Shown: positions 55,647 to 64,000, counted from the first letter of the stretch. The stretch: 64,000 bases of DNA from Candidatus Omnitrophota bacterium (GCA_013177805.1 JABLXU010000039.1:6050-70049), one strand, 5' to 3'. Translations and numbers: made by a program. The notes: a model not told the origin generated them from the letters alone.

Positions 55647-56987
55647 TTACACCAGCCCCTGGTCGATCATGGCGTCGGCAACCTTCACAAAGCCGGCGAT
55701 GTTCGCGCCCACGACGTAATTGCCGGGATAGCCGTATTCCTCGGCGGTCCGGCGGACGTTTTCATGAATGTTCACCATGATGCGGTGCAGATGCTGATCC
55801 ACCTGCTCGCGCGGCCAGGACATGAACTGCGAATTCTGCGCCATTTCCAGGCCGGAAGTGGCTACTCCGCCGGCGTTGGCCGCCTTGCCCGGGCCGTAGA
55901 GGATCTTGTGCTCCAGAAAGATATCCACCGCCTCGGGTTCAGAAGGCATGTTCGCCCCCTCGCTGACCACGAAACAGCCGTTCTTGACCAGCGTCTTGGC
56001 TTCTTCGGCGTTGATCTCGTTCTGCGTGGCGCTGGGAAACGCGCACTGGCAAGGAATGTCCCATGGCCGCGCCCCCTCCTTGTAAGTAACTCCCTTGAAT
56101 TTCTCCGCGTACTCACGGATGCGCCCGCGCCGTACGTTTTTGAGTTCCATGACCCAGGCCAGCTTCTCGGCGTCGATACCTGCTGGATCGTAAATGGTGC
56201 CGTTGGAGTCAGAGAGGGTTACCGCCTTGCCACCTAACTGGTTTAGTTTTTCCACCGTGTATTGGGCCACGTTGCCAGAGCCGGAAACCGCGCAAATCTT
56301 GCCCTCCAGGGAATCCCCCCGGGTTTTCAACATCTCTTCGGCGAAATAAACCGCCCCGTAACCAGTCGCCTCGGGACGGATCAGCGACCCGCCCCAGTTC
56401 AGCCCCTTGCCGGTCAACACGCCGGAAAATTCATTCCGCAAGCGCTTATACTGCCCGAACAAGTAGCCGATTTCCCGGCCGCCCACGCCGATGTCCCCCG
56501 CGGGCACGTCGGTCAACGGCCCGATGTGGCGCTGGAGCTCCGTCATGAAGGACTGGCAGAAACGCATGACCTCATTGTCCGACTTGCCCTTCGGATCGAA
56601 ATCCGATCCACCCTTGGCGCCGCCCATGGAAATCGTGGTCAGCGAATTTTTGAACGTCTGTTCGAAGGCCAAGAATTTCAGAATGCCCAAATTGACGGTG
56701 GGGTGGAACCGCAATCCTCCCTTGTACGGTCCAATGGCGCTGTTGAACTCGATCCGGAATCCGCGGTTGACCTGGATTTCTCCCCGGTCATCAAACCAAG
56801 GCACGCGGAATAGGATGACCCGTTCCGGTTCGGTGATCCGCTCCAGGATGCGGTTCTTCTGATACTTAGGGTGACGGCTGAGCACCGGTTCCAGGGACTC
56901 CAAGACTTCTTTCACGGCTTGGAGGAATTCGGGTTCGGAAGGATTCCTCTGAGAGACCATTTGCACCACATCAGACGCGTAGGACAT
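55647..56987 (-). CDS. gdhA: NADP-specific glutamate dehydrogenase
   Basis: [58 protein letters not shown]. Confidence 0.96.
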
Positions 56988-57095
56988 CGAATTCTCCTTG
57001 AATTTGCGCCCTGTTTCGGAGAGGGGGCGAGATGGTTTGACTTGTTTTCGGACTGACTTACTGGGACAGATTTGATAATTATGCGACTATTGATA

Positions 57096-57135
57096 TTGGC
57101 AACATGGTGCCAAATATAATTGGAATTAGAATTCC
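57096..57135. promoter_or_regulatory. Tandem NrpR-type operators
   Basis: TTGGCA-ACATGG-TGCCAA (57096-57113) and GGAA-TTAGAA-TTCC (57122-57135); the second matches the archaeal NrpR operator GGAA-N6-TTCC. Confidence 0.62.
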
Positions 57136-57748
57136 GGTCAAGAGGCAATAGAAAATTTTGAGTTTTTTTGGCATTTCCAGTGGACGATGCACGGTTACCC
57201 AGAAAAATCCACCGGTTTTTCATGGATGCCGGTTGAGAGACTCCCGATTTATTCCACTCACCAGAGAAAAGGCCTAACGGAAGGGTAACGGACCACGTCT
57301 TTTTTTTTATTCCGTAAGGCGCGTATCCCGGCCCTCCTCCCTCCGATCCACTTACTTGAGACAAATCGATTGATTACCAGGGAATGAATCGTGGGCTTGT
57401 GGCCGCCGATGTCCATGAAAGTAGATCGATCTCATTCCATCTCTCAACTCATGTGAGATTGCGTTTGATGATTTCAATAAGCTTTGATGGATTCAACAAG
57501 ATTCTATGGAAGGGCCGGCGTGATCATCAGGAGCGCCTGATCCAGAGATTGCCAATTTCGGATGAATTCCCCTGGTTTTCAAGGAATCTTTGTCTATTAT
57601 TATGGTATGGAATGCCGGATATCTGCCAAATATTCGGACGAAAGTTGAAAATATAATGGTCAATAAATAGGATTTTTGCCATTAAAAGGCGAATTCAGCC
57701 ACATTAAAGAGACCCAATAGATATTTTTTCGCCAAATCGAGATCCTCC

Positions 57749-61421: not shown

Positions 61422-61442
61422 AAGAATGGAAGTTTGCGCTTG

Positions 61443-61470
61443 AGAGACGGCCTTCCCCGCTGACCGTCTC
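61443..61470. terminator. Hairpin between the convergent dikinase-like genes
   Basis: GAGACGG...CCGTCTC stem in the 97-nt tail-to-tail gap; no clear U tract. Confidence 0.35.
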
Positions 61471-61518
61471 CTTCGCGGTCGCAACTTCTCTGCGGGGAAT
61501 TTTCAAACAATTCCCCGT

Positions 61519-64000
61519 TCATTCCAAGAAACAAACCGCCTGTTGCGTTTTGGGATCGGCAAAGACCTGGATCATCCGGCCGTCTTGATGAGCGTCGATG
61601 ATCTTGATCAACCCGTCATACTCGGCCGCCTCGGGAACCAGACCGGCTAGCTGATTGGGGGTTTGTTGAAAATAGGCTTCGTTGAATTCCGCCCGGGGAT
61701 CATTGGGAAACAGGGGCAGATAGATTATCTCATCCTCCACCAAATCCAGGAAAAAGTGGCTGCCATAGGATACTTCGGGCAGGTGGCCGGATTCCTCCCG
61801 CGCGATTTCCACCAGGATCGACGTGTTGTTGATGTCCGCGTAATGCACATTGACCCCTTGCTCGATATTGCTGCTCCCCCACCGGCCCGGTCCCATCATG
61901 AGCACTTTGCCTTGCTGAATGCGGGGATGCGCGTTAATCAAGCCGATTATCCGGCCCAGCGACTTTTTCACCGGCACCGGCGCGTCGTGATACCGCTGGG
62001 GATCGATATAAATCACATACTGGATATGGGAGACCACGCCACCGTTCACAATCCGGCTCGACCGGAACAACACCCGTTCACGGGGAATATTGGACGGCAA
62101 GCTCACCTGGAGGCTGGCCAGCCCGGGCAGGGTCATGGGCCGGCACTGCAACAGATTGACGCTCACCCGCCCCCCCGGGTGGATGAACGCCGTAAATTCC
62201 GTATCGATGGGCCGGCCGTATGCCCGCGCCAAGATCTCCAGCATCCGCCCGATGATTTTCACCAGGCCGGTTTGGCGGATTAAATTGTTAAAGGTGAGCA
62301 CACATTCCTCCGCCTCGCCGTCAAGAAATGGCGACGATGGATCGATAAGGCAACCGTCTTTCATCAACGAGACATACAAATGCTGATTGGGGTAATCCCT
62401 TCCGGCAAGAATATCCGCCGCGTGGAGGGTCACCAAGTCATTGCGGTCCAAATCGAGCAGATCAACTTCGCGCTGCGAGTATTTGACCACCTTCGCGCCG
62501 GTCTCGGGCCGCAGCTCGGGATGACTGATGGCGATCAGCCGGGGATAATCCCCTCCCGTCCGGTCCACCGCCCGCGTCCCCAGGCCGAACACGAGACGGA
62601 TCATGCCTCGGCTGGGATCGATCCGGTTTGTCCAGGCGTACAGGTTATGGGAAAACGCCACCCCGGCGAGAGGGGGGAAGAAGTACCGCTGGTACTGCAT
62701 GCCGGAAACCCGCTGCACCAGCAACGCCATCTGCTCGTCGCGGTCGCTGAGACCCCGCTTGCGGCGGTAGGAGAGCGCGTCCAGATTCAGCGCGCTGGCG
62801 TACACCAGCTTGACCGCCCGAAGGAACGCCTGCAACCGTTCTTCCGGACTCCCCTGGTTACAACAAAATTCACTGCGGTACTTTCCCGCAAAGGCGTTGC
62901 CGAAACTGTCCTCCAACATGCTGCTGGAACGCACAATGATGGGCGCCTGGCCGAAATACTCCAACATATTTTGAAACTGATCGAGGATATCGTGCGGAAA
63001 ATGGCCTTCCAAAAAGCGATTTTCCACTTCCTCGTATTCCTCGCGCGAGATCTGCGCCCCCCGCGAGAGTTGCATCTTCAGCCGGAACAGGTTGTTCCGA
63101 ACCAGGAAGGTGAAAAAGACATCGGAACCGATATAAAACGAATCGTGCTCCTCCATGATCCGGGTATACTCGGATTCGCCCATCTCCCGTTTCAAGATGC
63201 TCCGCGCCAGCAGCATCCCCGCCGCTTTCCCGCCGATCCGGCCTGTGCCGATAATGCGGTTGCGGATGGCGAACAAATCCTCCTGGGTGAAATAGGTCTC
63301 GGCCAGGTCCAAAAATTCGGGATGCGTGCCGAGGATCATGCGCGCCAGTTCCTGTTTCAGCGACATGATTTCCGGCCGGGCGCTAAGGGGAACGGCATCG
63401 TCCTCGTAAAATTGGGTCAGTTTGCGGTAGACCGCTTCCCAGGGCGCGATGGATTCGGCGCCGGCGCGCAGAGGCGACTTTTGTGATAAGGACACCGCTC
63501 GCGCGGCGTCCCCGCTTTGAAACAACGGCAGAAACGCCTCTCCGTCGAGCGCATGGGGCAGGAACATTTGGGATGAATAGCGGTCCCAAACCTTCAGAGC
63601 ATGAAAATATTTCGTGTCCCCGGCGCGGTAGAGATTGATTAACAATTGGGTCGTGTCGCGGATGCGGGCCACCGCGCTGTCGTCATGATCGCCCAGTTTC
63701 AAGGCGAAATAGGCCACCGTATCCAACTCGAACAAAAACGGGCAGGTGAGCTGAAAGAAATTGGCCAACAATTCATCCGTCGCCCATTCGGCCACCAGCG
63801 AGGAAAGGTTATCAAAAACGTAAAAATATTGGCGGCCCCGCGCCTCGATGATCCGGTGCACCTGCTCGCTGAAATAATCGAATCCCGGACTGGGATCCAC
63901 CTCCACGATTTCCAATCCCGCCCGCGGTTCGAGCACCGGGGGATGCGGCGCGAACCGCATATACACGCACGGGTAACCATCCTGGATGGATTGACGGATA
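61519..64000 (-). CDS. Second PEP-synthase/PPDK-like dikinase paralog (5' end beyond the window)
   Basis: The frame stays open to the window edge (..IRQSIQDGYPCVYMRFAPH). Same motifs as 58782: IGGKAAG, VRSSSMLEDSFGNAFAGKY, MALLVQRV, LLQCRP, GPGRWG, SYGSHFF. Confidence 0.85.
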   Translation of the reverse strand, partial: IRQSIQDGYPCVYMRFAPHPPVLEPRAGLEIVEVDPSPGFDYFSEQVHRIIEARGRQYFYVFDNLSSLVAEWATDELLANFFQLTCPFLFELDTVAYFALKLGDHDDSAVARIRDTTQLLINLYRAGDTKYFHALKVWDRYSSQMFLPHALDGEAFLPLFQSGDAARAVSLSQKSPLRAGAESIAPWEAVYRKLTQFYEDDAVPLSARPEIMSLKQELARMILGTHPEFLDLAETYFTQEDLFAIRNRIIGTGRIGGKAAGMLLARSILKREMGESEYTRIMEEHDSFYIGSDVFFTFLVRNNLFRLKMQLSRGAQISREEYEEVENRFLEGHFPHDILDQFQNMLEYFGQAPIIVRSSSMLEDSFGNAFAGKYRSEFCCNQGSPEERLQAFLRAVKLVYASALNLDALSYRRKRGLSDRDEQMALLVQRVSGMQYQRYFFPPLAGVAFSHNLYAWTNRIDPSRGMIRLVFGLGTRAVDRTGGDYPRLIAISHPELRPETGAKVVKYSQREVDLLDLDRNDLVTLHAADILAGRDYPNQHLYVSLMKDGCLIDPSSPFLDGEAEECVLTFNNLIRQTGLVKIIGRMLEILARAYGRPIDTEFTAFIHPGGRVSVNLLQCRPMTLPGLASLQVSLPSNIPRERVLFRSSRIVNGGVVSHIQYVIYIDPQRYHDAPVPVKKSLGRIIGLINAHPRIQQGKVLMMGPGRWGSSNIEQGVNVHYADINNTSILVEIAREESGHLPEVSYGSHFFLDLVEDEIIYLPLFPNDPRAEFNEAYFQQTPNQLAGLVPEAAEYDGLIKIIDAHQDGRMIQVFADPKTQQAVCFLE

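Follow-up and report, generated by a model that had tools for sequence, protein, structure and literature searches.

What two genes named after enzymes of phosphoenolpyruvate (PEP) and pyruvate metabolism are doing among nitrogen genes is the question raised by the locus that closes a stretch of 64,000 nucleotides, referred to as a whole as the window, from a Candidatus Omnitrophota bacterium (GCA_013177805.1, JABLXU010000039.1:6050-70049; the assembly around it amounts to 5.58 Mb in 93 contigs, 98.28% complete with 5.2% contamination). A glutamate dehydrogenase (GDH) gene, gdh1, is read leftward from this locus and the gene for the transcription factor NrpR rightward; nrpR is followed by a dikinase-like gene, dik1, and a second such gene, dik2, is read towards dik1 and is itself preceded by a second GDH gene, gdh2, and a TPR gene. 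The full order, gdh1 <- / -> nrpR -> dik1 -> <- dik2 <- gdh2 <- TPR, contains two pairs of a gdh and a dikinase-like gene, gdh1/dik1 and gdh2/dik2. Comparison with other genomes and with metagenomes shows that a gdh and a gene for a dikinase-like protein of about 870 residues form a conserved and widespread two-gene unit, which is present twice here.

The first pair is headed by gdh1 (gdhA; 55647-56987, minus strand), which codes for an NADP-specific GDH of 446 residues with ELFV_dehydrog_N and ELFV_dehydrog domains; it is an E. coli-type enzyme, scoring 770.7 bits against the NF006929 model with its cut-off of 536. The original prediction had gdhA divergent from nrpR, and the coordinates hold: nrpR occupies 57749-58768 on the plus strand and encodes a short-form NrpR of 339 residues, a winged helix-turn-helix (HTH_12) followed by one NRD domain (NRD1_2), with matches above the cut-offs to PF08461 (9e-14, 51.6 bits) and PF01995 (3.3e-73, 246.3 bits). 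Its stop codon TGA (58766-58768) is followed 13 nucleotides on, as had been noted, by the ATG of dik1 at 58782, but the true gap may be 37 nucleotides because homologues align from Met9 (58806). The dik1 gene (58782-61421, plus strand; 879 residues, subfamily A, with a PPDK_N match) and dik2 (61519-64128, minus strand; 869 residues, subfamily B), which runs past the window's end at 64000, are convergent across a 97-nucleotide gap, and their products are 38% identical. They had earlier been described as twins, and this is right in so far as they are two paralogs; they belong to different subfamilies, each tied to a GDH class of its own. Just past the window's end and 58 nucleotides upstream of dik2 on the same strand lies gdh2 (438 residues, both ELFV Pfam domains; window-equivalent 64187-65503, L003:4236-5552, minus strand), which is only 31% identical to gdh1 and by its sequence classes as an archaeal-type GDH, its best equivalog, NF040817, scoring 598.2 bits, below the cut-off of 750. 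The TPR gene upstream of gdh2 encodes 286 residues (window-equivalent 65635-66495, L003:5684-6544, minus strand).

How general these pairings are was assessed in three samples: 35 genomes of the bacterium's own phylum (34 loci fetched, plus the window), the best 80 of 570 confirmed metagenome loci, and 60 loci with 6-kb flanks from a second phylum, that of the Syntrophorhabdaceae record L006, of which 401 genomes were drawn evenly. In the own phylum 23 of the 35 genomes carry a dikinase-like gene, usually one per subfamily. A gdh2-type gene stands directly upstream of the dik2-type gene in all 17 dik2-type loci, 16 of which also contain the TPR gene, the exception being cut by a contig end; by manual count 15 of the 23 dik1-type loci have both gdh1 and nrpR, 1 has nrpR alone and 7 have neither (one of these on a contig of just 4.5 kb). 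Of the 80 metagenome loci 41 have gdh no more than 1.6 kb away, as do 10 of the 20 that are flanked by at least 3 kb on each side; gdh occurs in all four orientations relative to the dikinase-like gene, and nrpR is present in 9 of the 80. A match to the family was obtained in 86 of the 401 second-phylum genomes; here gdh is found in 47 of the 60 loci (within 1.8 kb in 46 of them), along with nrpR in 17, ntrC-like genes in 19, GOGAT-like genes in 17 and glnA in 2, so that 54 of the 60 contain gdh, GOGAT or glnA. The neighbourhood survey of homologues, proposed as a check in the original prediction, had named gdhA, nrpR and glnA among the genes to be expected, and gdh at 41/80 and 47/60 loci, together with nrpR, ntrC-like genes, GOGAT and glnA as recurrent neighbours, agrees with it. 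The pairing is specific as to class, dik1-type genes accompanying gdh1-type genes in 34/34 second-phylum pairs and dik2-type genes gdh2-type genes in 13/13.

These frequencies of adjacency are far above chance for genomes with 2-3 gdh copies, for which, at sizes of 2-6 Mb, chance adjacency is about 1%, a figure that is an estimate and not a computed control. When neighbouring open reading frames of 119 loci were clustered without supervision, only gdh (61 loci), nrpR (27) and the TPR gene (15, all of the own phylum) recurred in more than 8. The link to gdh is far stronger than that to nrpR, which is an add-on in some lineages. Co-occurrence points the same way: in the second phylum a GDH-family match (E<=1e-40) is present in 86/86 genomes with the dikinase-like gene as against 119/315 without, the tables having been compared by eye, and in the own phylum a gdh1-type GDH and a dikinase-like gene are both present in 22 genomes, both absent in 10 and discordant in 3 of the 35. 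In none of the sampled genomes was the dikinase-like gene seen without a GDH-family gene. In a FastTree phylogeny built from 113 members of the family, loci with an adjacent gdh turn up all over the tree, and the gdh2-linked clade is monophyletic.

The family is very large: 7,941 of 8,000 scored candidates matched, mostly at about 870 residues, from sources named, where a name is given, as Omnitrophota, Planctomycetota, Hydrogenedentes, Sumerlaeota, Hinthialibacter and others, and a protein-atlas search returned same-family clusters only. Mean column identity across phyla is 65%. Searches of freely available papers turned up no account of the family or its link to gdh.

The domain content shows that the names 'PEP synthase' and 'pyruvate, phosphate dikinase' given to these proteins in the databases are wrong, because there is no room in them for a PEP/pyruvate barrel; the claim of the original prediction that they are not the PPDK or PEPS of central carbon metabolism stands on the absence of this PEP/pyruvate-binding domain. 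PPDK_N (PF01326; 1.9e-43 in dik1, 2.8e-46 in dik2) is the sole Pfam domain of dik1 even at E<=10, covering residues 307-671. Neither the PEP/pyruvate TIM barrel (PF02896) nor PEP-utilizers or PEP-utilizers_C is matched at E<=10, and after the ATP-grasp domain only about 200 residues are left, forming one small domain. All NCBIfam models for PEPS, PPDK, Rph and PigC score far under their cut-offs (the best PEPS model, NF004881, 53.3 bits against 883; TIGR01418 38.9 against 739.75). An AlphaFold2 model of dik1 (pLDDT 79.6, pTM 0.75) consists of a KaiC-like N-domain, a helical linker, the ATP-grasp and a C-domain. The ATP-grasp domain (59700-60794, plus strand) contains GGK, RSSSLLED, EIEF and QCRP as invariant motifs; across 13 diverse members GGK, RSSSLLED, E-F and QxRP do not vary, and these we take to be the nucleotide and Mg motifs of PPDK. 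In Foldseek searches its best match is rifampin phosphotransferase (E 1.5e-11), followed by PEP synthase and HpeI. Rph (5hv1/5hv3/5fbs) is alike in having an ATP-grasp and then a C-terminal swivel domain; unlike it, the dikinase-like proteins lack the rifampin-binding domain, have the extra KaiC-like N-domain, score 31 bits against the Rph model's cut-off of 999 and show no sequence-level similarity to its histidine domain. With PEPS and PPDK they share the PPDK_N ATP-grasp with GGK, RSS..ED and QxRP, and possibly a phosphohistidine carrier domain, and differ in the barrel and the equivalog scores just given and in the lack of a PF00391 match.

The C-domain (residues 689-879, about 190 residues; 60846-61418, plus strand), which is marked by the motifs GPGRWG, an invariant one, and GTHFF, is predicted to be a small alpha/beta domain when modelled alone (pLDDT 89.4), with a fold like that of the swivelling beta/beta/alpha domains. 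A structural search (VIA) aligned it to phosphohistidine domains of Rph (5hv1 residues 762-867, Z 5.6), Enzyme I (5woy 5.5, 2wqd 5.2), PPDK (2fm4 Z 5.4, 1vbg 5.0) and EI-Ntr (5t12 Z 4.7), and to the C-terminal domain of pyruvate kinase 2e28 (Z 5.6), which we presume to be PEP-utiliser-like. The Z values being middling, the resemblance is a lead and not proof, and the C-domain alone had no match at E<0.001 in Foldseek. Within the motif G-T/S-H-F-F, itself invariant, His796 (codon 61167-61169, plus strand) is conserved without exception in both family alignments and is placed by the model where a helix begins, behind a glycine loop of low confidence, a geometry reminiscent of the T-S-H motif of PEP-utilising enzymes, which makes it the candidate phosphocarrier. 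The swivel histidine domain of Enzyme I hands phosphate to a separate protein, and EI-Ntr is linked to nitrogen status. The donor site here, however, would be an ATP-grasp and not a PEP-binding barrel, and a gene for an HPr-like partner was not seen.

The N-domain (residues 1-235; 58782-59486, plus strand) has in the model a KaiC/RecA-like fold of the RecA superfamily: Foldseek retrieves KaiC and FlaH (ArlH) at E of about 1e-8 over some 230-245 columns, with a TM score of 0.67 (on the target) for FlaH 4yds. No KaiC or ATPase Pfam match was obtained in the dikinase-like protein at E<=10, and where a Walker A P-loop, GxxxxGK[ST], would be expected, 13/13 sequences read PGDNxVWQV. Unlike KaiC and FlaH, with which it shares this fold, the domain is single and lacks Walker A. 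Searched for alone it yields 830 clusters at 50% identity, in which the listed matches are dikinase-like proteins or short single-domain records, except for two sensor-kinase clusters of the form N-domain-PAS-GAF-HisKA-HATPase (P0247) and N-domain-PAS-GAF-PAS (P0272); as it heads these sensor kinases it behaves as an input domain. A subfamily of about 770 residues from the second phylum (L181-L188) does without it: there is no match to the N-domain hidden Markov model, and an unrecognised N-terminal region of roughly 190-250 residues replaces the KaiC-like domain. This subfamily retains GGK, RSSSLLED, GPGRWG and GTHFF, including the equivalent of His796, and adjoins a gdh2-type GDH in 8/8 loci, and since the link to GDH is kept it must belong to the core of ATP-grasp and C-domain. 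Forms of 1,470-1,510 residues (P0006-P0009, P0168) hold two PPDK_N modules, joining an N-domain-less module of ATP-grasp and C-domain to a full-length one, which suggests that paired protomers may work together. No fused forms longer than 1540 residues, such as a fusion to GDH, were found, which is weak evidence. In one paralog, encoded beside glnA (L109:6867-9893), a receiver domain is weakly matched at the N-terminus, at 31.5 bits with the cut-off at 30.2.

Based on these observations we tentatively favour, at somewhat less than even confidence, a reading in which the protein is an ATP-to-histidine phosphotransfer enzyme that acts on GDH, or on a ligand bound to GDH, and so adjusts GDH activity, the N-domain serving as its sensor. 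ATP would be bound by the ATP-grasp domain, whose nucleotide motifs are intact, and a phosphoryl or pyrophosphoryl group would pass to His796 on the flexible loop of the swivel-type C-domain, as in PEPS, PPDK and rifampin phosphotransferase. From His796 the group would go on to an acceptor that is not part of the enzyme, as it does from Enzyme I to HPr; because no third, acceptor-binding domain remains, this acceptor should be a separate protein or else be bound in the linker or N-domain. The likeliest acceptor would be GDH itself or its bound ligand, and GDH activity or direction might in this way be switched by nitrogen and energy status; a sensory or regulatory input would come from the KaiC-like N-domain, which has no P-loop and with which one GDH-linked subfamily manages to dispense. 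The original prediction had likewise suggested a phosphotransfer arm of nitrogen regulation, with GdhA, NrpR or a nitrogen metabolite as possible acceptors. A more far-reaching version, in which dikinase-like protein and GDH together perform ATP-coupled ammonium assimilation, ATP being split to AMP and Pi by way of His796 to activate 2-oxoglutarate or a GDH-bound intermediate, is highly improbable in our estimate, even when taken together with its less radical form, a new class of protein kinase made of an ATP-grasp and a swivel histidine with GDH as substrate. Were the ATP-coupled route true, it would allow GDH to assimilate ammonium when this is scarce, and a third system would exist in addition to plain GDH and GS-GOGAT.

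Several results weigh against this proposal. Many loci have no adjacent gdh, namely 13/60 in the second phylum and 39/80, short contigs included, among the metagenome loci. Annotation of 18 gdh-less loci, of which 10 come from metagenomes, 6 belong to the own phylum and 2 derive from genome records, placed GOGAT and/or glnA at the gene or close to it in five (L043, L091, L098, L109 and L006), revealed a 2-oxoacid dehydrogenase E1 component in one and found nothing related in the other 12; as some adjoin gltBD or glnA, the glutamate node in general fits as well as GDH. No residues were found that separate 83 gdh1-type GDHs linked to a dikinase-like gene from 20 of genomes without one, and the match of subfamily to GDH class could stem simply from linked pairs being inherited together. 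Invariant polar residues (D34, N35, D116, T169, T170, Q171, R178, K189, R193) are densely set in the N-domain and look in sequence like a small-molecule pocket. As to the C-domain, the top row of its structural search is a DRTGG domain at Z 6.0 with other folds tied and the phosphohistidine rows below 6, its similarity to phosphohistidine domains is absent in sequence (no Pfam PF00391 at E<=10), and a PDB profile search with the family alignment gave chance rows only. Finally, an NrpR-type site was searched for upstream of TPR-gdh2-dik2 and none was found. A complex prediction for GDH1 with residues 1-300 of dik1 scored 0.00, a value that speaks neither for nor against the proposal; the fragment used was the N-domain, which is absent from one GDH-linked subfamily.

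In an alternative reading the protein would be a metabolic enzyme with a small-molecule substrate from the 2-oxoglutarate/glutamate/ammonium node; GDH, GOGAT and GS would be pathway neighbours and not targets, and 2-oxoglutarate, glutamate or a nucleotide cofactor, for example, would be phosphorylated while bound in the N-domain pocket or the linker. The 65% mean column identity is very high for a regulator, the invariant polar residues cluster in the N-domain, gltBD and glnA occur as neighbours besides gdh, the linked GDHs have no special residue, and the relatives Rph, PEPS, PigC and HpeI all act on small molecules. Yet the N-domain-less subfamily retains the GDH link in 8/8 loci and has no recognisable substrate-binding domain, the N-domain is reused at the head of sensor kinases, and a shared small substrate would not require two paralogs each with its own GDH class; we also know of no pathway that requires such an ATP-dependent step. 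On balance this explanation, the candidate substrates included, seems to us rather unlikely, while still deserving serious consideration. If the protein were a signal-transduction enzyme that passes the group to a regulator such as NrpR, an NtrC-like activator or PII, with gdh next to it merely as the main regulated output, this would in turn explain why in many loci nrpR immediately precedes a dik1-type gene in the same orientation, why ntrC-like genes occur in 19/60 loci and why there are fused forms with sensor-kinase or receiver domains. The regulator varies, however (NrpR, NtrC-like or none), and gdh is constant, most loci having gdh without nrpR (nrpR in 9/80 and 17/60), and GlnD, GlnE and two PII genes already exist in this genome, so that we hold a regulator as acceptor to be clearly improbable. 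An ordinary PEP synthase or pyruvate, phosphate dikinase of central carbon metabolism lying beside gdh by chance, to which the source names 'pyruvate, phosphate dikinase' and 'phosphoenolpyruvate synthase' and the PPDK_N match would lead, is scarcely credible: it is already contradicted by the predicted domain content, with the best NCBIfam model at 53 bits against 883, PEP-utilizers and PEP-utilizers_C unmatched and just some 200 residues after the ATP-grasp, and by a gdh adjacency of 47/60 and 41/80 far above chance.

The genome's endowment for nitrogen control includes GlnD, GlnE and two PII genes, and a replacement of GlnD or GlnE by the dikinase-like proteins was rejected, since both are present along with the two PII genes. 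The window itself contains a GlnD-type uridylyltransferase match at about 44220-44636 on the minus strand (PF08335, 106 bits) in an open frame of 892 residues, some 11 kb from gdh1, and by virtue of this match it holds nitrogen-control genes beyond those of the locus.

The transcriptional side of the locus is centred on the 761-nucleotide region between gdh1 and nrpR, in which NrpR-type palindromes had been noticed earlier; there are two of them, 24 nucleotides apart, over the predicted gdhA promoter. This sigma-70-like promoter (57113-57141, minus strand) matches the consensus at 10/12 positions, with a -35 hexamer TTGACC (57141-57136), a 17-nucleotide spacer and a -10 hexamer TATATT (57118-57113). 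The spacer is filled by the operator-like palindrome GGAATTAGAATTCC (57122-57135), an exact GGAA-N6-TTCC, and TTGGCAACATGGTGCCAA (57096-57113), of the form TTGGCA-N6-TGCCAA with a core at 57098-57111 that is the GGCA/TGCC variant, has its right-hand end (57113) at the edge of the -10 hexamer. The exact GGAA-N6-TTCC occurs 8 times in the window as against 2.64 expected, GGAATTAGAATTCC being the only one in the intergenic region. Both sites fit GGmA-N6-TkCC, their starts being 24 nucleotides apart, and the gdh1 promoter is the sole place in the 5.58-Mb genome with two such sites 10-45 nucleotides from each other. Two tandem operator-like sites on the predicted gdh1 promoter thus mark NrpR as the predicted local transcription factor, and at high 2-oxoglutarate NrpR would leave these operators and gdh1 would be derepressed. 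A promoter-like site ahead of nrpR (57576-57603, plus strand) matches 9/12 consensus positions. Contigs from four metatranscriptome libraries cover gdh1 in 4 runs and stop at 57069-57095, leave 57100-57616 bare and resume on the nrpR side at 57617-57625 in three runs; these ends agree with the predicted promoters, a weak hint since such contigs give neither strand nor ends.

Relatives have sites of this kind too. Of 23 gdh1-nrpR intergenic regions, taken from relatives and from metagenomes, just 4 contain the exact GGAA-N6-TTCC, and the comparison was made with the degenerate GGmA-N6-TkCC in its place: this 14-mer yields 17 sites in 12/23 regions against 0.43 in shuffles, and the 18-mer palindrome with at most 2 mismatches 21 sites in 15/23 regions against 0.35, the relatives' sites lying 67-163 nucleotides from the gdh start and often paired 24 nucleotides apart. 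Here too belongs the second phylum, in which GGCA-N6-TGCC is found upstream of gdh1 or nrpR in 12/37 upstream segments of nrpR-bearing loci (13 sites against 0.52 shuffled). Taking all loci, a site within 300 nucleotides upstream of gdh1 is present in 17/41 with nrpR as against 3/47 without. A second nrpR paralog, also of 339 residues, lies elsewhere in the genome (L123:2879-3898, plus strand, contig C23), with TGGCATTAAAATTCCA about 350 nucleotides upstream of it (L123:2527), beside a GAF-PAS histidine kinase. PMC2723118 gives GGAAN6TTCC as the consensus for methanogen NrpR and places NrpR in 'certain Bacteria', and its reference list cites work on 'two operators'. The present system resembles that of methanogens in the pairing of HTH_12 and NRD and in an exact GGAA-N6-TTCC site with a second site beside it; it is unlike it in being a short, one-NRD form in a bacterium, in having gdh as its predicted target, not nif, glnA or amtB, and in its preference for the half-site GGCA/TGCC. 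A reading of TGGCA-N6-TGCCA as a sigma-54 promoter was rejected, the sequence being a perfect palindrome with a GG-to-GC spacing one base short of the sigma-54 consensus. The intergenic region gave no match in an Rfam scan, and a 90-residue open reading frame in it (57384-57656) belongs to no Pfam or NCBIfam family, RNA-library contigs being absent over 57280-57559.

Other features complete the picture of the locus. The 97-nucleotide gap between dik1 and dik2 (61422-61518) can form two strong hairpins (minimum free energy -39.1 kcal/mol, z -3.44, with 0/200 shuffles as stable) and is likely a bidirectional terminator, and a terminator-like hairpin 3' of gdh1 (55581-55607, minus strand) has an 11-bp stem with 7 GC pairs and a T run. 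The nrpR-dik1 junction is bridged by none of the RNA-library contigs listed, and a contig of run X3 covers the dik2 region from 61422 to 63510. Another X3 contig omits 59 bases of dik1 (60527-60587) at a depth of 167 with a shorter side of 21 letters, and probably derives from another organism or a repeat. Between the gdh1 end and an FGGY sugar kinase gene (53536-55065) lies a tRNA gene (55406-55489, plus strand; Rfam 54.7 bits). On this side the module is flanked by a heterodisulfide-reductase-like pair (51331-52858, minus strand), a CCG-domain protein and a 4Fe-4S dicluster protein, and a similar 4Fe-4S protein lies on its other side (L003:6859-7428, minus strand). Between these Fe-S genes and the FGGY kinase gene the G+C content falls to 0.44 over window positions 52500-53500, as against about 0.58 around it.

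Ammonium enters biomass at two points, of which GDH is one, and the post-translational control of this enzyme in bacteria is poorly understood. Against this background, the locus leads to a very large protein family whose association with gdh is a consistent one in several phyla and habitats; the two genes make up a well-delimited unit, and a widespread annotation as PEP synthase or PPDK is corrected for proteins without the domain that these names imply. NrpR, known from methanogens, would by the predicted GGCA-N6-TGCC operator variant be extended to the control of gdh in bacteria. The unit itself opens the way either to a new mode of GDH regulation or to a new ATP-dependent step at the 2-oxoglutarate/glutamate node.

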